Below are positions 39,152-64,000 of a stretch of 64,000 bases of DNA, one piece after another. The stretch is from an uncultured Bacteroidales bacterium. GTDB lineage: Bacteria; Bacteroidota; Bacteroidia; Bacteroidales; UBA10428. The DNA is taken from positions 16,016 through 80,015 of the forward strand of contig CAZHQW010000003.1 of assembly GCA_964534745.1 (NCBI GenBank), in the 5' to 3' direction. The notes under the pieces were generated by a model, which did not search any database, was not told the origin of the DNA, and worked only from the letters and a program-made list of their open reading frames with translations. Both the position numbers and the translations under genes were made by a program. Numbering within the stretch: position 1 is the first letter of the stretch; the number at the start of each line of letters is the position of its first letter.

Positions 39152-40162
39152 TTACCTGATGTTTCTATAAATGCTGAAATCTCCAATACTAAGCTCTTCA
39201 TTACTTTTTATATACTCGACATTACTTCCTATTATGGACTGTGATGCCACTATTCCCTCAACCCTGGAGTTATCATATATTATTGTATTTGACAATATAC
39301 ATTTTGCTACTTCCGAGTTATTCTCTATTAGCACATAGGGCCCTATAATTGAATTGCTTATTTTAACATTTTCTCCAAGATAACAAGGAGGAATAATTTG
39401 TGTATTCATTATTTTAACGTTCTTTCCCTTAAGTTCTTTACTGTCCGTAAAGTCAAGTATCTTTGAGCTTGTTGCTATAAATGTGTTCTTATTACCGCAA
39501 TCGAGCCATTCCCTTACCGGTCCGATACTGAACTTCAATCCCTTATTTTTCAAGTTCTCAAGTACTGTTGTCAACTGGTATTCACCATCTACCATAATCT
39601 TGCCCCTTATAAGACTTTTTATCTCATTATTCAGCAAATCCCCGTTTTTAAAATAGTATAATCCTACGATTGCCTTATTTGAAATTTTTTCCTTTGGTTT
39701 TTCTATGAAGTCCGTCACTATATTTTGCTTATTTATTTTTACCACTCCGTAGTGTTGGGGATCTTTAACTTCATAAATCCATATTATAGCTTCATTTTCC
39801 TTGCCAACCTTAAAATCGGCCTTAAACAGCGTGTCTGCGAATGCTATAATAACTTCATTATTTAAAAGCTCATTCGCACAATATATTGCATGGGCAGTTC
39901 CCAGTGCTTCCTTTTGATAATATATTTTTCCGTGCGCATTTACATTTTTTGCAATACTAACCAGTTCATTTTCTACTTCCCTGCCAAAATCACCTATAAC
40001 AAATCCAATATTTTTTATTTTGCTGTCTATTGATTTTGCCAGTTCATCAATAAGCCTGTGAACAATTGCCTTTCCTGCAATTTTCATCAGTGGCTTCGGC
40101 ACAAACAGTGAATGAGGACGCATCCTCTTTCCAATACCTGCCATAGGGATAATTACATTCAT
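39152..40162 (-). CDS. sugar-phosphate nucleotidyltransferase with a C-terminal left-handed beta-helix
   Basis: N-terminal IIPMAGIGKRMRP...PKPLMKIAGK motif and C-terminal hexapeptide-like repeats. Confidence 0.8.
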   Translation of the reverse strand: MNVIIPMAGIGKRMRPHSLFVPKPLMKIAGKAIVHRLIDELAKSIDSKIKNIGFVIGDFGREVENELVSIAKNVNAHGKIYYQKEALGTAHAIYCANELLNNEVIIAFADTLFKADFKVGKENEAIIWIYEVKDPQHYGVVKINKQNIVTDFIEKPKEKISNKAIVGLYYFKNGDLLNNEIKSLIRGKIMVDGEYQLTTVLENLKNKGLKFSIGPVREWLDCGNKNTFIATSSKILDFTDSKELKGKNVKIMNTQIIPPCYLGENVKISNSIIGPYVLIENNSEVAKCILSNTIIYDNSRVEGIVASQSIIGSNVEYIKSNEELSIGDFSIYRNIR

Positions 40163-40180
40163 TTTTATTTATTTTAATTC

Positions 40181-40612
40181 TCATTTGCCAGTATGGCCAA
40201 ATCCTCCCTTTCCTCTCTCTGTCTGGTCCAATGACTGAACCAGCTCCCATTCAACCTTTTCATGCCTATTTATAATCATCTGGCAAATTCGTTCACCATC
40301 ATTAACAATATAAATTTTATCAGACAGATTTATCAGTATTGCACAAATTTCACCCCTGTAATCGGCATCTATAGTTCCCGGTGTATTTAATACCGATATC
40401 CCGTGCTTAATGGCCAATCCGCTTCTTGGCCTTATCTGGGCTTCATATCCCGGCGGCAGCTCAATAAACAATCCGGTTGGTATCAAAGCTCTTTCCAGGG
40501 GCTTAAGCCTTACAGGCTTATCAATATTTGCCATCAGATCCATTCCTGCAGAACTGCCTGTGCTGTATGCAGGAAGAGCATGCTTTGACTTACTGACTAT
40601 CTTTATCTTCAT
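40181..40612 (-). CDS. dut: dUTP diphosphatase
   Basis: Motifs [26 protein letters not shown] and [11 protein letters not shown]. The start overlaps the flippase 3' end by 23 nt. Confidence 0.95.
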
Positions 40613-42083
40613 AACCCTTTAAAAATACAGAAATAAGCTTCTCCCTTCTTTGTACAAAATAAACAAAAGGTATAAACAAAGCAGTACTTATTACAATATT
40701 AAATAACAGATTATCGGTTTTTACTAGAATATTTATAAAATAAACTGCCAGTCCGATTAAAATATAAAATACAATCCGTCTTATATCATAGTCAATCCTG
40801 TATAATTCCCTTCCCAGCAAATAAGAAAATACGAGCATAATAAAATTTGTTACCAGGTGCGCGTATGCACATGCTTTATAACTGTACCGCGGTATAAATA
40901 TTATATTCAGCACTATAGTAATTATTGCTCCTGTGCCAATAATCAAAGCCGCATATTGTGTTTTGCCCGACAGCTTATACCAGAAATTAATATTAAACAA
41001 AATGCCAAGCAGAATATTTGCAAACAATACAACTGGCACAATGCTTAGACCTTCATGAAATTTGGAGCTAATAAAATACTTAATAATGTCAATATAAAGA
41101 ACAATAAAAAGAAATATTATCATGCAAAATATTACAAAGTATTTTAAAATATTTCCGAATATTTCATTCGAATTCTTCTTCCTGTAATTGGAAAAGAAAA
41201 AAGGATCAGCTGCAAACCTGAACATCTGTATAAAAATAGTCATAAACACGGCGATTTTGTAATTTGCCCCGTAAATACCTATCTCATAAAGTTTATCATA
41301 TCCTTCTGAGAGGAAATGCCTGAGCAATATCCTGTCAATAGTCTCATTGAGAATTCCTGCCAGTCCCGCTACAAGCAAAGGGAATGAATATCCCAGTATC
41401 TTTGCGTACAGCCTAAAATCGAATTTTAATACAATTCTCCCAAGGTCAGCAAGCAACAATAAGCAAATAAGCATGCTTGTCAGCATATTGGCAAGAAGCA
41501 CGTACCCTACGCCTATCTCCCTGTTATAAACCACATTAATCCATTTTGCGCTGTAAGCTTCCGAAATACGGGGCATCACCTCCAGGAAAAACATTATTAG
41601 CAATATATTTATAACTACTCCCAGTACTTTATATACTGCAAATTTCATCACCTTCTCCTGCATTCTAAGCCGGGCATAGAATATGGAACTGAAAGCATCA
41701 AGGCCTATTATTACGGCCATCCATTTTATATATTCTCTGCTGCCGCCATACCCCATTATTGTTGATATTTTACCTATAAACACGAAAACAAGCACAACAA
41801 ATAATGAGGACGTGGTAAATAATGATATGGCAGAAATAGTGAAAATATCGCTGCTTTTTTCCCTGTCAGCCGTAAATTTAAAATAACCCGTCTCCATTCC
41901 GTACGTTAGAATTACAAGCAATACTGCAACATATGCATATAATTCCGTTATTATACCATATTCCCTGACCTCGAATCTATAGGTGTAATAAGGCGTTAGT
42001 ATGGCATAATTCAAAAATCTCGGTATTATGGAGCCCAGTCCATAAATTAAAGTCTGTCCCCCTAATTTTCTGTATGGATTCAA
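40590..42083 (-). CDS. MOP-superfamily polysaccharide/oligosaccharide flippase
   Basis: 497 aa with about 14 helices, and a Wzx/polysaccharide-biosynthesis-protein-like N-terminus ([20 protein letters not shown]). Confidence 0.8.
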
Positions 42084-46097: not shown

Positions 46098-47666
46098 CTA
46101 TTTTATAAGTTTTATATTATCATCCTGCAGATCAACCTTCACTCCGTTAATTCTTGCTTCCCTGTTGTCCTGATAAGTAATGGTAATCAGTAAATTACCA
46201 TATCTGTCATACTTTTTCCAGTTCTTCTCCTTTATGCCCATTGTAAAAAACTGCTCCTCCTTTAATACCCCGTTATCATAAAAATATCTGTGCTTACCGT
46301 CAGGATTTCCCTGAATATATTCTCCTTCAAATTTAAGAATATTGCCGGGATAATAATGTTTCCACTTCCCGTCCTTTAATCCGCCGATGTATGAGCCTAT
46401 TTCAATCTCATCGCCTACATTATAATACCATTCCCCCTCCTTTTCACCGTCAAAATACTCGCCTTTTGTGATAACTTCACCTGTTACATCATATTCAACA
46501 AACATTCCTTCTTCCCTGCCGTTATAATACTCCTCCTCCCTTTTAACCTGTCCGCTTTCATAATACCATACCCATTTCCCGTTAAGCCTGCCATTTTCAA
46601 ATTCTCCTGTCTGCTCTATTTCACCATTTTTATAATAGAACACCCATTTCCCCTGCTGCGTGTTATTCCGGTATTCACCTTCTGATTTGAGCTCTCCTGT
46701 GGGGTAAAAATTTTTCCAGTATCCTGTTTTGTTTCCCTCCTTGTCAACTACTCCCTCAGATATTTTTTCCCCGTTATCGTTGTAAATATATGCATTTATT
46801 ACATTTCCGCTTATATCATATTTGCGGTGTATACCAATGGGTTTAAAATTCCTGAAAGCCCCGCTATAAGTTATATTACCGTCTTCATCATATTCACTTT
46901 TTATTTCAACATCTTCTGCTTCGATATTATCATCCTGTACAATCTTACCCCCTTCGTACTTTAAAAGCAAAGTCAGGTTACCATTCTCATCATATTCTTT
47001 ATACAGGCCATCAATTTTATCATCCTTGTATTCAACTTCCTTTTTCTCTTTATTGTCGCTGTAAAATTCTTTCCACACTCCCTGTTTTAATCCATTCTCA
47101 TCAGTCCTGTTTATCTTTTCCCTTTCTGCAAGATTTCCCTTGACATAGTGCAATATGGTTATTATTGTCCCTGATTCGTCATATTCAAAAGCTATTCCAT
47201 CCCTCCTGTTGCTTTTATACTCAACTATACTCTTAATCTTTCCGCTATTATAATAATAAAAAGAAGTACCCTCCTTCATGTCGTTTATATACAGCTCCTT
47301 TGCTATTATGTTTCCTATATATTCGATGTTGTCCGTGCGGTCGGTATTATATGTCAGCATATACCCCGTTCTCTTACCCATGATATAGTTAATTTTCTTT
47401 GCCGTGTCACCAAAGTTATTGTAGAAGATCCATGTGCTGTCAAGCATATGATTTTTCCTGTTGCCTTCGGACTTCAATACGCCGGTCATGTAATAAGTTT
47501 TCCAGAATCCTTCAGGCTTGCCGTTTCTCATCATCCCTTCACTTGATACCTTACCGTTTCTGTAATATAAAATATTGTAACCGTCCTGCACAATTTCCTG
47601 CTGGGTCCAGGAAATAAAAAATTTGTTCAAAGCAAGTATTAAAAGAATATATCTGTAATATTTCAT
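46098..47666 (-). CDS. secreted MORN-variant (YwqK-type) repeat protein
   Basis: Signal peptide followed by about 18 tandem G-x-x-x-G-x-W-x-x-Y-Y-x-x-G repeats. Confidence 0.75.
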
Positions 47667-50056: not shown

Positions 50057-53000
50057 ATGAAGAAAAGAATGAAAGTGTCAGAGATGATTTCAGCGCTAAG
50101 AAGCGAGAAGATCAGAACATGGTTTGATCTGGGTATTTTTATTGACAGGTTCAGGGAAACAAAGCCACTGCCAACAGTAAGATTTAGCGACACATACAAG
50201 GATTTTAAAAAGAAGATAACAGAAGGGGGTATGGCCTTTATAACATTTTTATATTCTGTCGACGGAGTAACGATAGAGGTTGAAAAATATGCAAAGATTT
50301 TCAGAAAAATCCTGAAAGGTATTAAAATACACTACATATGCGGCAGGTTCTATCCTGAATCTTATAAGCTCATAGACAAAAGCACTATAAGGTATGAGAT
50401 ACCGGAAATGAGAGCTTTTGACAACTGGAAGCTGTATAAGGATTTCTATTTCACAAAGCTTGAAAGAGGCGGCAAGAAATACAATGAGCTGATAATAAAG
50501 CTCTGGGAAGAAGTATTAATAATAACCGAGAAACTGGGTACGTATATTGAGAACAATAACATAAATCTTTTATACCTGATTAATGTATGCTCAAATCCGG
50601 GAAATATATCAATGGCGCTGGCTACCATATTTGTTGCAGAGTACCTGGGTATACCCGTTATTAATAATAATCATGACTTTTACTGGGAAGGGGGCAACAA
50701 GAAAATTGATATTCTTGAAAAGGGATTAAAAGAGGGGCCGAGGGACTTCTTTTTCAATAATGCCGATATTGGAGAGGTATTTTCAGTAATAGAGGTATTA
50801 TTTCCATGGGAATCACGTTCGTGGATAAATGTGAATATAAACCAGATGCAGTCGCGGCGGCTGGTAGTTGACAAAGGTCATAATCCGGCGAGTGTAACTA
50901 AGATAGGAACGGCGGTGGACACCGACAAGTATTTTAATGTCAGCAAAAGGGAAAAAATCAATACATTTTACCAGTTTGAGAAGATATTGAGCCGTTACAG
51001 CAGTGCTTTAATAAGTTATTCGGTTTCGGATGTTATTAAGAATAATCTTGTTGACAAGAAGGATTCCCGGCCGATATTAATTGGGGCCAAGACAAAGCCT
51101 GTGGAAAAGTTCCTTTCGGAAAACATAGTATTCCTGCAACCCACGAGGATCATAGAAAGAAAAAGAATTGAACTGGGATTTAAGCTGATAAAAAGGCTTT
51201 TTAGCAATGTCAACTTTGTTGACCGGCTAAAAACTACTCCCAATCTGAAACTCACTATTATTGTTACAGGTCCCATTGCAGTAGGACATTTTGAATACTA
51301 TCAGAAACTTATTATCCGTTTTTCTGAGCTTCTGAATGTACTTGACCCGGGACTAAGGAATAAGGTTTACCTGGCATTCCTGTTCAGTGAGCTTGACAAG
51401 GAATCCTTCAAGAGCAGGTTCAGGAATCCGGTTGGTGTACCGGAGCTGTATAATATAGCATCGCTGGTATTATTACCAAGCAGGACCGAGGGACGGGGCC
51501 TGCCTATTATTGAAGCCACAGCCTGCGGGACGCCAATTTTTTGCAGGAGGTATTTTCCGAAAAATGTTTATTCTGAGGTTATAGGCGAGCAACTGCCCGA
51601 GATTGACAGGTTAAAGGTAATTGAATTTTCAGGGAAGAAAATAACTTCAAAGCATGCTGATGATGTTTTTGACAGGGTGATGTTTCCGCACAAATATACC
51701 GAGGAGATACTGCACAATAAGAATGCAATATTGGGAAGATTTAGTCTCGAGGCCCTTACAAACAACATAAATAATATTTTATTCAGGCTTTACAACCAGG
51801 TGCTGCCTAATGAAAAGTCGATGGAGACGGTAAAAGCGGAAATCAGCAGATATAAAAAGGTAGTGAACTTCAGCAATAATGATCTAAGGGCCATACTGAA
51901 AACAGAGAACAGGCATTTCATGCCGGGATTCGGAAGATTGGCATTTATGCTTAATCTCAAGTCATTGATTGATCCCAGTGCATTCAGGGTTGAGGAGCAG
52001 CAAATAAGGGGCTTTGTGCACAGCTATGCAAATAAGCTGCTGAAAGATTACAGCTCAATAAACATACCGGAAGAAAAGAAGTACAGGTATTTTAATGCAG
52101 TTGACAATATATTCCATTACCGGGAGGGGGAAATAAAGATCAGGCATGACCATTCCTTTGCCTACAGGCATAGAAACAAAAACTATTATCCCTGTCAGGA
52201 TTTTACGATCCAGGAGTTAACGGGACTGGTAAACTTGCTTTTTCTTAAGATTGTGAATCCCAAGGCAAGGAAAATTGTTGATGAAAGCCCCCATTTTTTT
52301 ACTGACTGGAACCTTGCCCTTGCAGAACTGACTTCCAGTTCAGATATCGCAATTGATGACAGGGAAAGGCTGATAAAAAAGCTGCAGACAAACATACCTA
52401 TTGGTATTTTTCCGGGGGATTATGTAAAGTATGAGCTTGAGTTTTTTGCTTTGCAGTCCGTTCGCTCAAGGCTCAGGCTGACAATAGAGGAGGAGCTGGA
52501 TAGCAAGCTGATATTAAAGAATAAGAAGAGGCTTGCACCTGTATATGTGTTTGCCCACACAAAACCTATTGGCAAGTGGTACAATAAAGATGACATTATT
52601 GAATATATCGAATCAGGCAAAGAAAAGGAGCTGTATTTATTGTATAAACACGGACTGATAAAGATCATCGAGTCAAAGCAGTTGTGCCTGGGCATTCATT
52701 TTCCTCAGATGGGCGCCAAAGCATTAAAGGTTTTGAGGTATATCCGTGACAATGGGGGATTTATTATTTCAAACAGGCAATTTGCTTCAATAATGAGCGA
52801 TATTGTTGATATTGACTGCTTTCATATAGGCAATGCCATACATCCTGTTACTGCGAACATTATGGGCATTCCGCTGTACAGTGGTTATATCCAGTTTGTG
52901 CCGGCAGGGATAAAGACTACGCTGGCATATCCTACACCCATACAGACAGCAAAGGATTTTAACCAGATATTAAACAGCAGGCAGTTTAATAATGCAGTTA

Positions 53001-54238
53001 AAAGATATGGAGAAGAGAAGCTTTTCCAGATACTAAAAAAAGATTCCGAGGAGAGAGGATCTCCGGCGGACTATGTGCTGGATAACCTTATGGGAGCAGC
53101 GGAAAAAAACAGTGAAATTGAATATGAATACTTAAGCGGTATTTATGGTGACGGAATGCCCTGGAATGGTGTATATGCGAGAGTAAATGTAAGTAACCCT
53201 GATCATAGTTGGGTATTCAGGACCGTGTCGAGCATTAACGGGACAAAAAAGGTGACAACCCTTGCCGAAGAGTTCACCGGAGAGACAGGAAAAGACATAA
53301 AAATAGCATGGAATGGCGGGTATATACTTAATCCCGAACTTGTAGGCAAGCTCGGCCTGCCCGAATCTTATATCGGATCACCACTGGGCCTTCTGGTATC
53401 GGACAAGAAAGTTACAAGTCCCCCTCTCTATAACAAAGCGGCTTTCCTTGTAAATAACGAGGGCAAAATAGATATAAGAAGGGTAAACTCGAGAAAGGGT
53501 ATAACTGTAACGCGAAAGAAGACTAAAGTTGTTATTGGCAGTGAAAATTACAATTGTGAACGGTCGGGGGAGGAGCCTTGTTATTATGATTTGCTTTACA
53601 AACATGAGGATATTGATGCAAAAGGAAGGGTGATAGTCAGATTGTCCGGTAATATTATCAAAGACATAATAAAAAACAGCAGTTCGGTGAAGATTATCCC
53701 GGTGGGACTGACATTATCCTTTCCGGCGGACCGGTTTCCGGAAGATTTTGATGAGCTGGAAGCAGAGCTGGGATTGAAAGTTAACGGGATAAGCAACATT
53801 ATCCATGCTGTAGAGGCGGGTCCCCTGCTTGTAAATAACGGGGAAGAAGCAATCAACATGGAAGAAGGGGGTTGGACCACAGCTAATTCAATTGCTACAC
53901 AGGCTGCAAGACTGGACTATACTGATATGCGTGGGCCCAAGATAGCAGCCGGCATCGACAGGGAAGGCAATTTGCTGGTGCTGACCGTTAACGGGAGAAT
54001 AAGGGAATCTGTGGGAGCTACACATGTAGACATGGCTGAAATTATGATTAAATTAGGGGCATGGAAAGCTATGGGCTTTGATCCGGGAGGCAGCAGCACG
54101 CTTTTTGCCAATGGAAAAGTATTAAATATTTCTCCTTATAACAGGGAATACGAAAAGAATATTTATTCAATGCCCCCTGAGCCAAGGGCAGTATCAAATG
54201 CTATTTTAGGTTATACTGATGACACAGTAATTGTCTGA
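50057..54238 (+). CDS. 1393-aa multidomain protein: GT-B (GT4-like) glycosyltransferase + unassigned central module + NAGPA/DUF2233-like phosphodiester glycosidase domain
   Basis: No signal peptide or TM segment at the N-terminus. The retaining-GT EX7E block is LLPSRTEGRGLPIIEATACGTPIF (about 51488-51514). The C-terminus carries AWNGGYILNP..GSPLGLLVSD, EAGPLLVNNGE and GPKIAAGIDREGNLLVLTVNGR...GATHVDMAEIMIKLGAWKAMGFDPGGSSTLF, matching the DUF2233 pattern. Confidence 0.8.
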   Translation: MKKRMKVSEMISALRSEKIRTWFDLGIFIDRFRETKPLPTVRFSDTYKDFKKKITEGGMAFITFLYSVDGVTIEVEKYAKIFRKILKGIKIHYICGRFYPESYKLIDKSTIRYEIPEMRAFDNWKLYKDFYFTKLERGGKKYNELIIKLWEEVLIITEKLGTYIENNNINLLYLINVCSNPGNISMALATIFVAEYLGIPVINNNHDFYWEGGNKKIDILEKGLKEGPRDFFFNNADIGEVFSVIEVLFPWESRSWINVNINQMQSRRLVVDKGHNPASVTKIGTAVDTDKYFNVSKREKINTFYQFEKILSRYSSALISYSVSDVIKNNLVDKKDSRPILIGAKTKPVEKFLSENIVFLQPTRIIERKRIELGFKLIKRLFSNVNFVDRLKTTPNLKLTIIVTGPIAVGHFEYYQKLIIRFSELLNVLDPGLRNKVYLAFLFSELDKESFKSRFRNPVGVPELYNIASLVLLPSRTEGRGLPIIEATACGTPIFCRRYFPKNVYSEVIGEQLPEIDRLKVIEFSGKKITSKHADDVFDRVMFPHKYTEEILHNKNAILGRFSLEALTNNINNILFRLYNQVLPNEKSMETVKAEISRYKKVVNFSNNDLRAILKTENRHFMPGFGRLAFMLNLKSLIDPSAFRVEEQQIRGFVHSYANKLLKDYSSINIPEEKKYRYFNAVDNIFHYREGEIKIRHDHSFAYRHRNKNYYPCQDFTIQELTGLVNLLFLKIVNPKARKIVDESPHFFTDWNLALAELTSSSDIAIDDRERLIKKLQTNIPIGIFPGDYVKYELEFFALQSVRSRLRLTIEEELDSKLILKNKKRLAPVYVFAHTKPIGKWYNKDDIIEYIESGKEKELYLLYKHGLIKIIESKQLCLGIHFPQMGAKALKVLRYIRDNGGFIISNRQFASIMSDIVDIDCFHIGNAIHPVTANIMGIPLYSGYIQFVPAGIKTTLAYPTPIQTAKDFNQILNSRQFNNAVKRYGEEKLFQILKKDSEERGSPADYVLDNLMGAAEKNSEIEYEYLSGIYGDGMPWNGVYARVNVSNPDHSWVFRTVSSINGTKKVTTLAEEFTGETGKDIKIAWNGGYILNPELVGKLGLPESYIGSPLGLLVSDKKVTSPPLYNKAAFLVNNEGKIDIRRVNSRKGITVTRKKTKVVIGSENYNCERSGEEPCYYDLLYKHEDIDAKGRVIVRLSGNIIKDIIKNSSSVKIIPVGLTLSFPADRFPEDFDELEAELGLKVNGISNIIHAVEAGPLLVNNGEEAINMEEGGWTTANSIATQAARLDYTDMRGPKIAAGIDREGNLLVLTVNGRIRESVGATHVDMAEIMIKLGAWKAMGFDPGGSSTLFANGKVLNISPYNREYEKNIYSMPPEPRAVSNAILGYTDDTVIV

Positions 54239-54239
54239 T

Positions 54240-55127
54240 ATGAAAAGAGTTATTGCAGCGAACATAATATTGGCAATTGCAATCAATTGTTATTCGCAAT
54301 TAATATGTGATACAGTATACTTTGACAGGAACTGGCAGCAATCAGACATCGAAAATGCTCGTTATTACAGGGTTATCAGTGACGACACAAGCGGAAAAGT
54401 GCAGTTTATCGTAAGGGATTATTATATTTCAGGTCTTATTCAGATGGCCGGTACTTATAAATCAATAAATCCTGATTTTAAAACAGGCGACTTCAGGTAC
54501 TGGTATGAGAACGGGCAGCCACTTATAGAGTGTAATTTCCTTAATAACAAGCTTAACGGCGAATACCTGGAGTATTATGAGAACGGACAGCCGAAAGTCC
54601 GCAGGAAATATATAAACGGATTAATAGACGGGACTGAAAAGACATGGTCACTGTCAGGGTTTCTGGCAAAGGTCGTTGAATACAAGCTTGGAGCCAGGCA
54701 CGGCAAGTTTCTCACCTATTATGAGAACGGACAGCTGATAAGGAAAGATATATATAAAAATGATGAGTTTATAAGGGGCAGGTGTTTTACCCGTGAGGGG
54801 AAAGATACCGCCTACTTTGAATATTTCATAATGCCAGCCTTTCATGGAGGATTGGAAGGATTTAAAAGATTTATACTTGAAGGTATCAGGTATCCCGAGG
54901 TGGCCAGGCAGAACAATGAAGAGGCTAAGGTTTATCTTAATTTTACTGTCAACAAGCAGGGTGAGGTTATAAAGGCAAGAATAGTCAAAGCAGACAAAGA
55001 TTATTTTAATGAAGAGGTGATGAGGGTTATAAGCTTATCTCCAAAATGGATCCCCGGCAGGAAGGATGGCAAAATCATCAATGTATCAATGACAATTCCC
55101 ATACTCTTTAAAATAATCCCACATTAA
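54240..55127 (+). CDS. secreted MORN-variant repeat protein with a TonB C-terminal domain
   Basis: The ATG is 2 nt after the giant ORF's stop. It has a signal peptide (MKRVIAANIILAIAINCYSQ), YwqK-type repeats (YWYENGQPL..YLEYYENGQPK..TYYENGQLI) and a C-terminal TonB_C pattern (PAFHGGLEGFKRFILEGIRYPEVARQNNEEAKVYLNFTVNKQGEV). Confidence 0.75.
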   Translation: MKRVIAANIILAIAINCYSQLICDTVYFDRNWQQSDIENARYYRVISDDTSGKVQFIVRDYYISGLIQMAGTYKSINPDFKTGDFRYWYENGQPLIECNFLNNKLNGEYLEYYENGQPKVRRKYINGLIDGTEKTWSLSGFLAKVVEYKLGARHGKFLTYYENGQLIRKDIYKNDEFIRGRCFTREGKDTAYFEYFIMPAFHGGLEGFKRFILEGIRYPEVARQNNEEAKVYLNFTVNKQGEVIKARIVKADKDYFNEEVMRVISLSPKWIPGRKDGKIINVSMTIPILFKIIPH

Positions 55128-55246: not shown

Positions 55247-56803
55247 ATGGATATAGACGGTAAATTATATAAAAGATTTCTGGCTCGCTATGACACATAC
55301 CTAGAGCAGCATGGGGAAGCTGTTAGCGAGAAGCAGCATTCCAAGGGAAAGCTGACTGCAAGGGAGAGAATTGAGCTTTTATTTGATCCTGACTCTTTCG
55401 AAGAGATTGATGCATTTTCCAAGCCCTATCCGTCAGGCGGTGAATTCGGTAAGGTTGTTTCGGCATATGGGGACGGGGTGATTATAGGCCATGGAAGGGT
55501 GGCAGGGAGGCTGACTTTTATGTATGCCCAGGATTTCACAATAATGGGGGGCTCTCTGGGGTCGGTTCATGCTTCAAAGATTGCGAAGATACAGGATATG
55601 GCACTTAAGATGGGGGCGCCGATGATTGGATTGATTGATTCGGGAGGAGCCCGCATTCAGGAGGGAGTAGCCAGTCTTGCAGGCTATGCCAGTATATTTC
55701 ACAGAAATGTCAAATCTTCAGGGGTTATTCCCCAGATTTCAGTCGTTATGGGTCCTGCTGCCGGTGGAGCAGTGTATTCGCCGGCCCTGACAGATTTTGT
55801 GTTTATGACAAACAAGACGAGTTACATGTTTGTAACAGGACCAAATGTAGTAAAGGAGGTGCTGAATGAGGAAGTTACTTTTGACGAGCTGGGAGGGGCC
55901 AATGTACATATGCAAAAGAGCGGTGTGGCACAGTTTGTATATGAGGATGAGGAGAATACCATAAGGGGATTGCAGAAACTGCTTTCATACCTGCCTTCAA
56001 ATAACCTCGAGAATCCCCCTTTTGTTGATTTCGGTGACACTGAGGAGCGTGTAGAGGAGAAGCTGCGTGATATTGTGCCCGACGATCCGAATAAGCCCTA
56101 TGATATGAAGGAGATTATAAACCTTATCATAGACAAGGGCACTTTTTTTGAAGTGGCCGAGTATTATGCAATGAATATAGTAATCGGATTCGGCAGGCTG
56201 AGGGGAAAGACTATAGGCATACTGGCAAACCAGCCAAAGGTCCTTGCCGGGACCCTTGATATAAGCTCTTCTGTAAAGGGAGCGCGTTTTATCCGTTTCT
56301 GTGATGCATTTAATATACCAATACTGACACTTGAAGATGTGCCGGGCTTTCTTCCGGGAATAGACCAGGAGCATAACGGAATTATCAAGCACGGGGCAAA
56401 ACTGCTGTATGCATACAGCGATTCAACGGTTCCCAAAATTACTGTCATACTCAGGAAATCATATGGGGGCGCATATTGTGTTATGAACAGTAAAAACCTG
56501 GGAGGAGACTTCAATTTTGCCTGGCCCACAGCAGAAATTGCTGTAATGGGACCGGAAGGGGCGGTATCGATACTTTTCAGAAAAGAGCTTGGAAAGTCCA
56601 ATGATCCCGATAAGATGAAGAAAGAGCTGGCTGTAAAATACCGCGAAGAGATAGCAAATCCTTTTGTTGCTGATGAAAAAGGCTATATAGATGAAGTAAT
56701 AGACCCGGCGATGACCAGGAAGAAGCTTATTACGGCATTTGAGGCACTCGAAAATAAACATGTCAGCGTTCCTTCCAGGAAGCACGGCAATATCCCTCTA
56801 TAA
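55247..56803 (+). CDS. acyl-CoA carboxylase carboxyltransferase subunit (PccB/MmdA-like)
   Basis: 518 aa. Conserved blocks are GKLTARERIELLFDPDSF, FTIMGGSLG, DSGGARIQEG and RKSYGGAYCVM. Confidence 0.93.
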   Translation: MDIDGKLYKRFLARYDTYLEQHGEAVSEKQHSKGKLTARERIELLFDPDSFEEIDAFSKPYPSGGEFGKVVSAYGDGVIIGHGRVAGRLTFMYAQDFTIMGGSLGSVHASKIAKIQDMALKMGAPMIGLIDSGGARIQEGVASLAGYASIFHRNVKSSGVIPQISVVMGPAAGGAVYSPALTDFVFMTNKTSYMFVTGPNVVKEVLNEEVTFDELGGANVHMQKSGVAQFVYEDEENTIRGLQKLLSYLPSNNLENPPFVDFGDTEERVEEKLRDIVPDDPNKPYDMKEIINLIIDKGTFFEVAEYYAMNIVIGFGRLRGKTIGILANQPKVLAGTLDISSSVKGARFIRFCDAFNIPILTLEDVPGFLPGIDQEHNGIIKHGAKLLYAYSDSTVPKITVILRKSYGGAYCVMNSKNLGGDFNFAWPTAEIAVMGPEGAVSILFRKELGKSNDPDKMKKELAVKYREEIANPFVADEKGYIDEVIDPAMTRKKLITAFEALENKHVSVPSRKHGNIPL

Positions 56804-56874
56804 TTATCTTTTAACTTAGCCGCATTGATTAAAAAATTATAATAATAACAGTCTTGTTTTAGTACAATTTTTAA

Positions 56875-56882
56875 TACATTTG
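56875..56882 (+). promoter_or_regulatory. Bacteroidota -7 promoter box (TACATTTG) upstream of accC
   Basis: Exact TAnnTTTG match 24 nt upstream of the ATG at 56906. Confidence 0.45.
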
Positions 56883-56905
56883 AATTCTCCTTATAAGCCT
56901 GTATT

Positions 56906-58411
56906 ATGAAAATTAAGAGTCTGCTAATTGCCAATCGCGGAGAGATAGCTGTACGCATTAACAATACGGCCAGGAAGTTAGGGATAAAGACTTACGGTAT
57001 AAAGACTGCGAAGGAACCCAATGCACTTTATCTTAAGCATGTAGATCATGTTATTGACTTCAGTGATGATATAGGGGAGATACCCGAATTTCTGGATATT
57101 GAAAAAATAATTAATGCAGCCAAAAGCAATAGGATAGATGCTATTCACCCGGGGTATGGCTTTCTGGCAGAGAGCCCATATTTTGCAACCCGCTGTGAAG
57201 AAAAGAAGATATGCTTTATCGGCCCCTCTGCTTCAGCTATATATAAGATGGGTAATAAGACTATTGCAAAGCAACTGGCCACAAAGTACAATATACCCTT
57301 ATTAAAGGGAAGCATGGGCAACATCATGAATGATGTCCATGCCAGGGATATAGCAAAGAAGATAGGCTATCCCGTTATATTAAAGGCTGCGGCAGGAGGC
57401 GGGGGACGTGGAATGAGGGTTGTTGACAAGGAATCGAAGATGGAAAAGATGTTCAGGATGGCTACTGACGAGGCTGAAAAGGCCTTTGGCGATCCGGCAC
57501 TGTTCATAGAAAAATACGTCAGTAATCCGCGCCACATAGAATTCCAGATTCTTGGCGATAAGCACGGCAATATTGTTCATCTTGGTGAAAGGGAATGCTC
57601 CATACAGCGCAAGCACCAGAAGCTTATTGAAGAAGCACCTTCGTTTGTGGTAGACAGGAAGCTAAGGAAGAAGATGGGCGGGGATGCAGTGCGCATTGCC
57701 GAATCAGTAGGTTATTACAGCACGGGAACAGTAGAGTTTCTTGTTGACGATGCAAGGAACTACTATTTTATGGAGATGAATACAAGGATACAGGTTGAGC
57801 ATCCTGTTACAGAGATAACTACAGGCATAGATCTTATTGAACAGCAAATAAGGATTGCCGAAGGAGAAAAGCTGCCGTTTACGCAGAACGATATCAGACT
57901 AAAAGGATGGGCCATAGAGTTAAGGATAAATGCCGAAGATGTTCAGGCTGGCTTTTCACCCAATATTGGCACGATTGAGAAAATAAGTTATCCGAAAGGC
58001 AAGAATATACGTATTGACAGTGGCATAAACAACTCTTCAGTTATCACTCCCTACTATGATTCCATGATTGCCAAGCTTATAGTTCATGGGGAAACGAGGG
58101 AAAAAGCAATATCTGCAGCTGTAAGTGCACTGAAAAAGTTCTGGGTAAAAGGAATAAAAACCACTATTCCTTTTTGTCTTGCAGTACTGACAAATAAGAA
58201 ATTTAAAAAGGGCGATTTTAATACATCTTTTATTGAAAAGGAAATGGACAAACTCTATTACCAGGAGGTTGATGACGAGATGCTTGCTGCTTACGTGGCA
58301 GCTTTTGATTTTGCAGCAGAACTCGAAACAGACCGTTCGACTTATGTTAATTTCCAGCAGGGCAAGAACATAAGCCCCTGGGTATTGAATAAAAGGCTCA
58401 GATCACTTTAA
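56906..58411 (+). CDS. accC: biotin carboxylase subunit
   Basis: LLIANRGEIAVRI, the ATP-grasp block KAAAGGGGRGMRVV, and EMNTRIQVEHPVTE. Confidence 0.95.
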   Translation: MKIKSLLIANRGEIAVRINNTARKLGIKTYGIKTAKEPNALYLKHVDHVIDFSDDIGEIPEFLDIEKIINAAKSNRIDAIHPGYGFLAESPYFATRCEEKKICFIGPSASAIYKMGNKTIAKQLATKYNIPLLKGSMGNIMNDVHARDIAKKIGYPVILKAAAGGGGRGMRVVDKESKMEKMFRMATDEAEKAFGDPALFIEKYVSNPRHIEFQILGDKHGNIVHLGERECSIQRKHQKLIEEAPSFVVDRKLRKKMGGDAVRIAESVGYYSTGTVEFLVDDARNYYFMEMNTRIQVEHPVTEITTGIDLIEQQIRIAEGEKLPFTQNDIRLKGWAIELRINAEDVQAGFSPNIGTIEKISYPKGKNIRIDSGINNSSVITPYYDSMIAKLIVHGETREKAISAAVSALKKFWVKGIKTTIPFCLAVLTNKKFKKGDFNTSFIEKEMDKLYYQEVDDEMLAAYVAAFDFAAELETDRSTYVNFQQGKNISPWVLNKRLRSL

Positions 58412-58423
58412 TTCTAAACAGGG

Positions 58424-58966
58424 ATGATAAAAGCACAAAATAAGAAAGTCAAAATACTGAAGGATGAGTATATTGCTGTTACGCAGAAGAATAAAAGATA
58501 CAAGATGAACAGCCTTTTCAGTGAAGACCTGAAAATAAACAACAAGAAAGCAGATATTAAAATATTTGAAAGCGAAGACGGATTCACTTACCTTGTATGG
58601 AAGAACAGGAAGTACCAGGCTGAAATCACTGACAAGAGCCAGAATAAGTATACCGTTTTATTAAACGGTGTCAGCTACTGGTTCTCTGTGGAATCCCCGA
58701 TATCATACAAGAGAAAAAAATATCTTGACAAGCAAAAGGAAAAAAGCAAAACAGAGGCAATAATAGCTCCTATGCCGGGCAAGATTGTTGATCTCCTTGT
58801 TGAGGAGAATGCGGAAATCAAGGAGGGGGATCCCATACTTATCCTCGAAGCTATGAAGATGCAGAATGAGATAAGCTCCCATGTCACAGGAAAGATAAAG
58901 AAGATACTTGTCAAGCAGAATGATTCGGTAGCAAAAGACGAGGTATTGCTGGAGATAGAAAAGTAG
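58424..58966 (+). CDS. biotin carboxyl carrier protein-like subunit
   Basis: C-terminal biotinyl domain with EAMKMQNEI. The N-terminal ~100 aa are not assigned. Confidence 0.85.
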   Translation: MIKAQNKKVKILKDEYIAVTQKNKRYKMNSLFSEDLKINNKKADIKIFESEDGFTYLVWKNRKYQAEITDKSQNKYTVLLNGVSYWFSVESPISYKRKKYLDKQKEKSKTEAIIAPMPGKIVDLLVEENAEIKEGDPILILEAMKMQNEISSHVTGKIKKILVKQNDSVAKDEVLLEIEK

Positions 58967-63871: not shown

Positions 63872-64000
63872 ATGAGAATAGGAATTGTAATAGGAAGGAT
63901 TGGGGGCGTGGACGGTGTTGCTCTTGAGACAGAAAAGTGGATAGAGGTTCTGAAGAGGATGGGCCATGAAGTATTCATATTGTCAGGCCAGTATGAGGAG
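63872..64000 (+). CDS. glycosyltransferase N-terminus (GT-B/GT4-like), 3' end outside the window
   Basis: ATG at 63872 with an open frame to the window edge: MRIGIVIGRIGGVDGVALETEKWIEVLKRMGHEVFILSGQYEE. This is a typical GT-B N-terminal beta-strand plus glycine loop, and it resembles residues ~59-100 of the 1393-aa ORF. Confidence 0.6.
   Translation, partial: MRIGIVIGRIGGVDGVALETEKWIEVLKRMGHEVFILSGQYEE

Follow-up and report, generated by a model that had tools for sequence, protein, structure and literature searches.

A 1393-residue Bacteroidales protein that combines GT4-like, DUF89-like and NAGPA-like modules

What could be made by a protein that carries a glycosyltransferase and a domain of the phosphodiester glycosidase ('uncovering enzyme') family on one cytoplasmic chain? 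This question is raised by a giant gene located at 50057-54238 (+) in a 64,000-nucleotide stretch of contig CAZHQW010000003.1 from an uncultured Bacteroidales bacterium, the whole of which is called the window here. The best explanation of its sequence is a soluble cytoplasmic protein of 1393 amino acids (aa) with three modules: a GT4 glycosyltransferase, a DUF89-like module and an NAGPA-like module. The initial annotation, made from the DNA letters alone, had described a fusion of two domains; both were recovered in our study, whereas the ~450 residues between them were found to correspond to a third, DUF89/ARMT1-like module and not to a linker.

Reading frame, family and glycosyltransferase module

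The list of open reading frames, the translation and the full-length homologs support the extent of the gene, which consists of 1393 codons plus stop. As had been claimed at the outset, it is a single ATG-to-stop frame with no internal stops, and all the motifs quoted at that time are present: LLPSRTEGRGLPIIEATACGTPIF at aa 472-495, which holds the EX7E pair E478/E486, NGGY...GSPLGLLVSD at aa 1086-1116, GPLLVNNGE at aa 1255-1263 and GIDREGNLLVLTVNGR...GFDPGGSSTL at aa 1299-1349. The two domains that had been expected, a GT4-like glycosyltransferase at aa ~380-560 and an NAGPA/DUF2233 domain at aa ~1050-1390, were detected above the Pfam gathering cutoffs as Glycos_transf_1 (PF00534) at aa 361-498 (E 5e-9, 36.4 bits, cutoff 26.4) and NAGPA (PF09992) at aa 1243-1383 (E 3e-20, 73.5 bits, cutoff 25). 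The predicted lack of an N-terminal signal peptide or transmembrane helix was also borne out by hydropathy. The Kyte-Doolittle scan with 19-residue windows gave no signal-peptide-like or transmembrane-like N-terminus, all windows within the first ~55 aa being below 1.2; the highest value (1.88) belongs to a window beginning at aa 184, within the N-lobe of the GT-B fold, and no amphipathic or transmembrane anchor was evident in the profile. Since both signal peptide and membrane anchor are absent by this measure, the protein is predicted to be cytoplasmic and not luminal or exported. The N-terminal segment (aa 1-55; 50057-50221 (+), upstream of 50222) is non-hydrophobic and conserved, and I19, T21-W-F-D-L-G26 and D30 are invariant in the homolog alignment. 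The GC content of the gene (0.39-0.42) matches its surroundings and a compositional anomaly is absent.

The family is large. From the candidate set of a search of 5.8 billion proteins, 785 significant matches were obtained, of which the best 120 are 1302-1419 aa long, span nearly without exception 99-100% of the query and all contain the same two Pfam domains. Those of the 120 that carry a name are designated 'phosphodiester glycosidase family protein' or 'glycosyltransferase' and come from Bacteroidales, Bacteroidota, Marinifilaceae or Chlorobi metagenome-assembled genomes. Relatives are encoded in 384 stretches when one genome per species is considered (185,579 species). Most homologs belong to Bacteroidales or Marinilabiliales, and isolates carrying one include Marinifilum fragile JCM 15579, Marinifilum spp. 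and Ancylomarina longa. When 1.84 billion cluster representatives were scanned exhaustively with HMMER, using query aa 1-1200, only 455 matches resulted, in which full-length family members reach down to 26% identity; the named members at 26-40% identity are from Oligoflexia, Myxococcota and Deltaproteobacteria. For sequences 55-81% identical to the query, mean column identity is 67% over the entire length, and conservation extends through the ~450 residues separating the two Pfam domains. Because collinear full-length homologs are present in independent assemblies and isolates, more than 120 of them with 1382-1419 aa and 99-100% query coverage, the fusion is real and mis-assembly, a concern raised in the initial annotation, was rejected. 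Another concern raised there, that the architecture might be a common family with an assigned function, was half justified: the family is common and vertically conserved, but an assigned function was not found. The literature search also returned no paper on this three-domain architecture, in agreement with the earlier remark that no described system of the kind was known, and the DUF2233 literature found was without glycosyltransferase fusions. The three domain families are known, but their combination and cellular location are not described in the literature searched.

Shorter variants of the protein also exist. P0158 and P0169 (~575-588 aa) consist of the glycosyltransferase module alone, P0194 and P0229 (900-955 aa) contain the glycosyltransferase and DUF89-like modules without the NAGPA domain, and in P0255 and P0266 (763-793 aa) the glycosyltransferase module is fused to a PRK/uridine-kinase P-loop domain. 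By eye, the first EX7E Glu is missing in P0194.

The first module (aa ~56-580; 50222-51796 (+)) was delimited using Pfam, NCBIfam and BLASTP, and its sequence identifies it as a retaining-type GT4 enzyme whose donor and catalytic residues are fully conserved. Residues were counted in 121 close homologs (the main family) and 29 distant homologs. The EX7E motif, TEGRGLPIIEA at aa 477-487, provides E478 and E486 (51488-51514 (+)); no exception to these two residues or to R364 and K369 occurs among the 121 close homologs, and the Glu pair is also kept in 29/29 distant ones (150/150 overall). The N-lobe (aa 71-215) and C-lobe (aa 352-501), separated by an insertion of ~135 aa, align in BLASTP with a complete GT4 protein similar to mannosylglucosylglycerate synthase (MggS) with E 6e-12 and 9e-9. 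The best NCBIfam match is likewise that of MggS, NF041101, at 45.8 bits, which misses the equivalog cutoff of 640 bits. On these alignments the module lies on the same GT4 branch as MggS.

The NAGPA-like and DUF89-like modules

The third module (aa ~1020-1393; 53114-54235 (+)) was assigned to the phosphodiester-glycosidase fold by Pfam, phmmer and Foldseek. Using phmmer against PDB sequences, the C-terminus was matched with Slr0280 (5h3k) and vertebrate NAGPA (6pku, 6pky), and in Foldseek the C-terminal part of an AlphaFold2 model of aa 575-1393 (model 2) matched 5h3k (E 1.4e-17) along with 6ozd, 6u11, 6pky, 6pku and 3ohg, the range being 1e-17 to 1e-9. Hence, the module shares PF09992 and the fold with the NAGPA 'uncovering enzyme' and with the bacterial DUF2233 proteins BACOVA_00430 (3ohg), Slr0280 (5h3k) and BPSS2145 (6ozd). 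It differs from them in a beta-rich insertion of ~110 aa (aa ~1130-1240), in its position behind a GT4 and a DUF89-like module, and in belonging to a protein with neither signal peptide nor anchor by hydropathy. We know of no established physiological substrate for the bacterial DUF2233/NAGPA proteins.

In human NAGPA the DGGGS loop (D286-S290) is described as 'strictly invariant' and the backbone NH of G287 touches N-acetylglucosamine (GlcNAc); E226 and T227 are further GlcNAc contacts, T260 and R316 are phosphate ligands, and the G287A variant misfolds (PMC13474241). Alignments and residue counts place DPGGS, D1342-S1346 (54080-54094 (+)), at this catalytic and phosphate loop. An invariant DGGGS was therefore not found, as the residue matching G287 is proline (P1343) in all 121 close homologs and in 25/29 distant ones. 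From its loop spacing and flanking motif, R1377 in PRAVSNA (54185-54187 (+)) corresponds to R316. The human flank around R316 is presumably CPRQVSTV, in a numbering that agrees with the residue numbers of PMC13474241. In the phmmer alignment T260 falls on R1316, whereas E226/T227 fall on T1281/Q1282 in a loop region where the alignment is of moderate reliability. D1342, G1344, G1345, S1346, R1377, R1316, T1281 and Q1282 are all 100% conserved in the 121 main-family sequences. The distant lineages without D1342 (with NHEHC, QTQAA, QSGES or GLGRS at the loop) are also without R1377, a joint loss which is expected if both residues form one functional site.

The initial assignment to the uncovering-enzyme family was thus right in fold and Pfam match, but the module is not an orthodox member. 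Sequence and model agree on an NAGPA fold in which the catalytic Asp, the Gly-Gly-Ser loop and the phosphate-binding Arg are kept and the N-acetyl-recognising positions are replaced. GlcNAc specificity is unlikely because the equivalents of E226/T227 are T/Q. Our reading is that an alpha-sugar-1-phosphate ester can still be bound in the pocket and is probably cleaved there, the sugar not being GlcNAc; the Gly-to-Pro change could equally have left a binding-only site.

The middle module (aa ~590-1010; 51824-53086 (+)) was recognised from AlphaFold2, Foldseek and profile searches. Pfam gave no match at E<=10 to the aa 575-1075 region in the window protein and 13 close homologs, PF01937 being absent in all of them even at this threshold, and a PDB profile search with the middle region also gave no match. 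AlphaFold2 model 1 of this region (predicted local distance difference test, pLDDT, 71; predicted template modelling score, pTM, 0.71) has a helical N-part followed by a well-predicted Rossmann-like alpha/beta core. Its top 8 Foldseek matches in PDB are all DUF89 proteins, with PH1575 (2g8l) at E 1e-6; At2g17340 (1xfi), AF1104 (2ffj), S. pombe Duf89/Duf8901, 8tkz and 7u1x are among the DUF89 matches. Model 2, which is independent (pLDDT 76.8), repeated these matches (2g8l, E 1.6e-6; target-based template modelling score, TMt, 0.59-0.60), and DUF89 entries were the sole significant ones for the middle region in the two models (TMt 0.57-0.60). The distant members provide the link at the sequence level. 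A profile of the middle region of ten of them (A4) matched PH1575 2g8l at E 3.1e-6 and At2g17340 1xfi at E 0.018 in PDB, and hhalign joined A4 with the window's own subfamily (A2) at 100% probability and E 3.5e-72. PF01937 (ARMT1-like) is found above its cutoff of 25 in distant member P0155 (E 1.6e-9, 37.8 bits) and weakly in P0145 and P0164. A homolog search with the distant-clade middle-domain profile returned one protein only, and a scan of metagenome contigs for this clade returned one short locus (L081); neither added context.

Catalysis in DUF89 proteins involves an Asp that serves as nucleophile and metal ligand and is followed by Asn, a second metal-binding Asp, and a Lys, which are D248, N249, D286 and K401 in Duf8901 (PMC9062747). 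The register was set by the HMMER alignment to PH1575, in which the canonical motifs 'YIDDS', 'ILYITDNVGEHYFD', 'GPIINDATVEDL' and 'IIAKGQGNFETL' have 'IAIDDR', 'IGIFPGDYVKYELE', 'PIGKWYNKDDI' and 'IISNRQFASIMSD' as counterparts in the window protein. IAIDD at aa 764-768 (52346-52360 (+)) is the kept 'IDD' motif, and IGIFPGDYVKYELE at aa 782-795 (52400-52441 (+)) is the strand and loop of the canonical 'ITDNVGE..D'. The nucleophile position is G787, which is Gly in 118/121 close and 23/29 distant homologs; the Asn position (aa 788) is variable in the family, a conserved acid is lacking at aa 841-844 where the second metal-binding Asp would lie, and the catalytic Lys position is Asn (equivalents N906/R907). 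P0155 alone keeps a near-canonical 'CDGAGEIVFD ... ENDIT ... ARGIHNYFTL'. D767-D768 of the 'IDD' motif were considered as the nucleophile pair and rejected, since in the PH1575 alignment 'IDD' is a distinct conserved motif and the Asp-Asn falls at G787/D788. With the Asp nucleophile, the second Asp and the Lys lost, canonical aspartyl-phosphate chemistry is impossible for this module.

In comparison to the DUF89/ARMT1 proteins (PH1575 2g8l, At2g17340 1xfi, AF1104 2ffj, S. pombe Duf89/Duf8901 and yeast YMR027W), the module shares the fold, the 'IDD' and the order of motif strands, with homology traceable via the distant members; it differs in the lost catalytic residues, in invariant loops of its own and in being embedded in a 1393-aa protein. 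The models and profiles thus identify a degenerate descendant of the DUF89/ARMT1 metal-dependent phosphatases. Its family-specific invariant loops, YLPG...LKSLIDPSxFRVEE at aa 618-646 (nt ~51908-51994) and RHDHSFxYRHRN at aa 693-708 (nt ~52133-52180), are among the most conserved segments of the protein. Both have pLDDT <50 in the two AlphaFold2 models and may be interface or lid elements.

A second glycosyltransferase and the other neighbours

The surroundings of the gene were compared in 80 related genome loci. The commonest order in these loci is rpiB, an Rrf2-family regulator, vanZ (opposite strand), the giant gene, hemW and a 428-aa GT4 gene (opposite strand). This second GT4 protein is MggS-like: it is 424-428 aa long and is matched by NF041101 over its full length (222.7 bits, E 7e-66, below the 640 cutoff). 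In the window its gene was identified by tblastn (82% identity to the MggS-like GT4 found next to the giant gene in most related loci) and translation at 63872-64000 (+), with the start MRIGIVIGRIGGVDGVALETEKW... and MRIGIVIGRIGGVDGVALETEKWIEVLKRMGHEVFILSGQYEE..., and it runs past the window end.

The partner gene lies within 10 kb of the giant gene in 47/58 informative loci. It was found directly upstream on the same strand, with gaps of 6-34 bp, in three sets of loci (L079/L080, L088/L089 and L094), the gap being 6 bp in L079/L080. The partner is 49% identical in L088/L089, where the giant protein is just 35% identical to the window protein, and 53% identical in L094. For the homologs P0136 and P0132 (35-36% identical to the window protein) the partner is directly upstream with gaps of 25-34 bp and 49-53% identity. 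This frequency, the 6-bp same-strand spacing and the adjacency kept at 35-36% identity make the partner stand out from general synteny. The MggS-like GT4 is therefore a conserved neighbour which is operonic in three divergent lineages, and the giant protein probably works with this second, nearby-encoded glycosyltransferase.

NF041101 is the best NCBIfam match of the glycosyltransferase module and spans the whole partner, and the cytoplasmic soluble setting is shared with MggS, but at 45.8 and 222.7 bits against a cutoff of 640 neither protein is an MggS orthologue. Moreover, none of gpgS, ggS and mggA/B of the glucosylglycerate (GG) and mannosylglucosylglycerate (MGG) pathways was identified near the giant gene. 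In Rhodopirellula, MggS-family genes share operons with phosphatases (PMC3736172).

The giant gene is preceded in the window by rpiB and a divergent vanZ-like gene and followed by a MORN/TonB-C protein gene and then an acyl-CoA carboxylase cluster. The former (54231-55127 (+)) encodes 298 aa from a TTG start, has a C-terminal TonB domain and overlaps the giant-gene stop by 8 bp; it is one of two genes for MORN/YwqK-like repeat proteins in the window, the other lying at 46098-47666 (-), and in most related loci its position is taken by hemW. The carboxylase cluster (55247-58966 (+)) encodes a carboxyltransferase, a biotin carboxylase and a biotin carboxyl carrier protein, and a carboxyltransferase/enoyl-CoA hydratase/biotin carboxylase set occurs near P0178 (L082 2575-7084). 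This adjacency was set aside as a conserved link, being limited in Bacteroidales to the nearest relatives (L001, L009), and is probably a coincidence. At 39152-42083 (-), 8-10 kb upstream of the giant gene, there is a block of a sugar-1-phosphate nucleotidyltransferase-like gene, a dUTPase and a Wzx/MurJ-like flippase, which is syntenic in many related loci.

Other settings were seen around the distant homologs. Class III polyhydroxyalkanoate (PHA) synthase genes phaE-phaC lie directly before the homolog in L082 (7678-9861) and L085 (132-3425), and on the latter, the P0164 contig, phasin and phaJ are also upstream. A small conserved gene of 173-193 aa follows the homolog in the Deltaproteobacteria/Myxococcota clade. 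The P0140 contig (L093 3068-14554) has genes for phosphoglycerate kinase, H+-pyrophosphatase and glyceraldehyde-3-phosphate dehydrogenase upstream, and for a 468-aa non-MggS-like glycosyltransferase and a GalT-family nucleotidyltransferase downstream; these flanks hint, on one contig, at 3-phosphoglycerate or nucleoside diphosphate (NDP)-sugar metabolism. Among the remaining distant-homolog contigs, several held nothing suggestive.

Proposed function and its alternatives

We tentatively prefer a cytoplasmic pathway in which two glycosyltransferases would make a soluble glycoside and the sugar-phosphate modules would be partly catalytic and partly vestigial. The two glycosyltransferases would work one after the other on a small, soluble acceptor molecule, following the logic of the GG-to-MGG conversion, to give a compatible-solute-like di- or oligo-glycoside by way of a sugar intermediate that is phosphorylated or linked through a phosphodiester. 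The NAGPA-like module would bind a non-GlcNAc alpha-sugar-1-phosphate ester and probably hydrolyse it at the glycosidic C-O bond. The DUF89-like module would be a vestigial phosphatase, now a phospho-ligand-binding or scaffold domain, comparable to the inactive sucrose-phosphate phosphatase (SPP)-like domain of sucrose-phosphate synthases (SPS). The initial annotation had suggested a build-then-trim pathway for a phosphoglycan, glycolipid or compatible-solute-like product; the trimming remains conjectural, and the MggS-like partner context favours the compatible-solute or soluble-glycoside version over the other two. A GT-B synthase and a phosphatase-type domain are likewise combined in a single cytoplasmic chain in SPS and in TPSP of Thermoproteus tenax, which PMC3634074 presents as a fusion of trehalose-phosphate synthase and phosphatase (TPS-TPP). 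The giant protein differs from these in that its phosphatase-type module is of the DUF89 type and not of the haloacid dehalogenase (HAD) type and in its extra NAGPA-like module, and there is no detectable sequence relationship beyond GT4/GT-B, the PDB matches to SPS-like proteins having E ~0.3.

Several observations weigh against this pathway. In 11/58 informative loci, among them those of the Marinifilum and Ancylomarina isolates, no partner gene lies within 10 kb, and it is likewise missing from the surroundings of several distant homologs. Common descent may simply account for much of the synteny in Bacteroidales, as hemW, rpiB, nadA and ruvB are conserved too. In the Deltaproteobacteria/Myxococcota clade the giant gene follows phasin-phaJ-phaE-phaC, a setting of carbon storage and not of osmolytes, and the P0132 contig abuts a cluster of glycosyltransferase, Wzy, Wzx and Wzz genes. 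With respect to the NAGPA-like module, the mapping of E226/T227 comes from one phmmer alignment in a loop region, and the proline at the G287 position removes the backbone NH that binds the substrate in human NAGPA; as G287A misfolds there, hydrolytic competence is not assured. In five distant representatives the NAGPA motif is gone entirely and EX7E is kept, so that catalysis by this module appears to be dispensable in some lineages.

The main rival of the two-glycosyltransferase pathway, though unlikely in our estimate, is a single-activity GT4 enzyme in which both C-terminal modules are pseudoenzymes, acting as a scaffold, in oligomerisation or as an allosteric sensor of sugar phosphates or NDP-sugars, and no trimming takes place. 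The DUF89 catalytic set is gone in almost the whole family, the change of DGGGS to DPGGS and the five lineages without the NAGPA motif point in the same direction, and relatives exist with the glycosyltransferase alone or with the middle domain and no NAGPA domain. There is also a precedent, since the SPP-like domain is catalytically dead in many sucrose-phosphate synthases. However, the NAGPA-like pocket residues are invariant in all 121 sequences at ~55-60% overall identity, and D1342 and R1377 are lost together, as in a working site; sequence by itself cannot separate binding-only from catalysis.

The fullest version of the pathway is the one in which the GT4 module and the MggS-like partner build the soluble glycoside via an alpha-sugar-1-phosphodiester, which a cytoplasmic non-GlcNAc 'uncovering' glycosidase on the same chain then resolves. 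We regard this version as doubtful.

It is rather improbable that the protein modifies, on the cytoplasmic side of the membrane, a glycan that is polymeric or attached to a lipid, such as capsule, lipopolysaccharide, teichoic-acid-like phosphoglycan or protein O-glycan, with the GT4 module adding a sugar and the NAGPA-like domain cutting a sugar-1-phosphate linkage of a polyprenyl-phosphate sugar or a sugar-1-phosphate repeat. Surface-glycan synthesis employs many GT4 enzymes that are peripherally associated with the membrane, and polyprenyl-phosphate sugars and sugar-1-phosphate polymers are themselves sugar-1-phosphodiesters. The Wzy/Wzx/Wzz cluster beside P0132, and the Wzx-like flippase and sugar-1-phosphate nucleotidyltransferase genes upstream in the window, would also fit. 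Against these stand the hydropathy profile, with no transmembrane or amphipathic anchor evident, and the position of the gene outside surface-glycan clusters in the window and in most of ~90 loci. Further, the gene is single-copy, with 55-60% identity across families and housekeeping synteny, whereas surface-glycan loci are hypervariable, and the GT4 branch of the partner has a characterised member that makes a soluble solute.

A role in carbon storage linked to PHA or glycogen, in which a storage-associated glycoside would be made or remodelled or granule components glycosylated, is very improbable. The gene stands directly after phaE-phaC in two Deltaproteobacteria/Myxococcota representatives (43% mutual identity), the central-metabolism and nucleotidyltransferase genes around P0140 are compatible with such a role, and an acyl-CoA carboxylase cluster adjoins the gene in the window and near P0178. 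The PHA context is, however, limited to one clade, no pha genes were found in the window at 40-64 kb or in the inspected Bacteroidales gene maps, and the carboxylase adjacency does not extend beyond the window's closest relatives. An artefact of two to three mis-joined genes, or a mobile defence or conflict system, has a negligible probability: its sole point is a weak sub-threshold match to PF20706 (GT4-conflict; E 9.6e-4, 18.7 bits, cutoff 26), against hundreds of collinear full-length homologs, stable chromosomal synteny and normal GC, and the defence reading was rejected for want of a PADLOC match.

The soluble two-glycosyltransferase pathway remains our preferred reading. If the C-terminal modules are inert, the finding shrinks to an unusually large GT4 protein of limited interest. 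The middle module clearly illustrates how a DUF89 phosphatase can become a pseudoenzyme within a protein of biosynthesis, and this fossil module together with a cytoplasmic NAGPA-like domain should be notable to specialists in carbohydrate-active enzymes or compatible solutes. A strongly conserved cytoplasmic version of NAGPA, fused to a glycosyltransferase and altered in its specificity loop, gives experiments a workable starting point, because it is present in isolates such as Marinifilum fragile. From the conserved pairing with the MggS-like GT4, a soluble glycoside not yet characterised is predicted for widespread Bacteroidia of marine and sediment habitats. If a cytoplasmic 'uncovering' glycosidase is indeed at work, the NAGPA fold would have its first intracellular role in bacteria, and the pathway might define an osmolyte, storage glycoside or phosphodiester metabolite of a new class in anaerobic Bacteroidia from the sea and from sediments, as well as in some Myxococcota and Bdellovibrionota.

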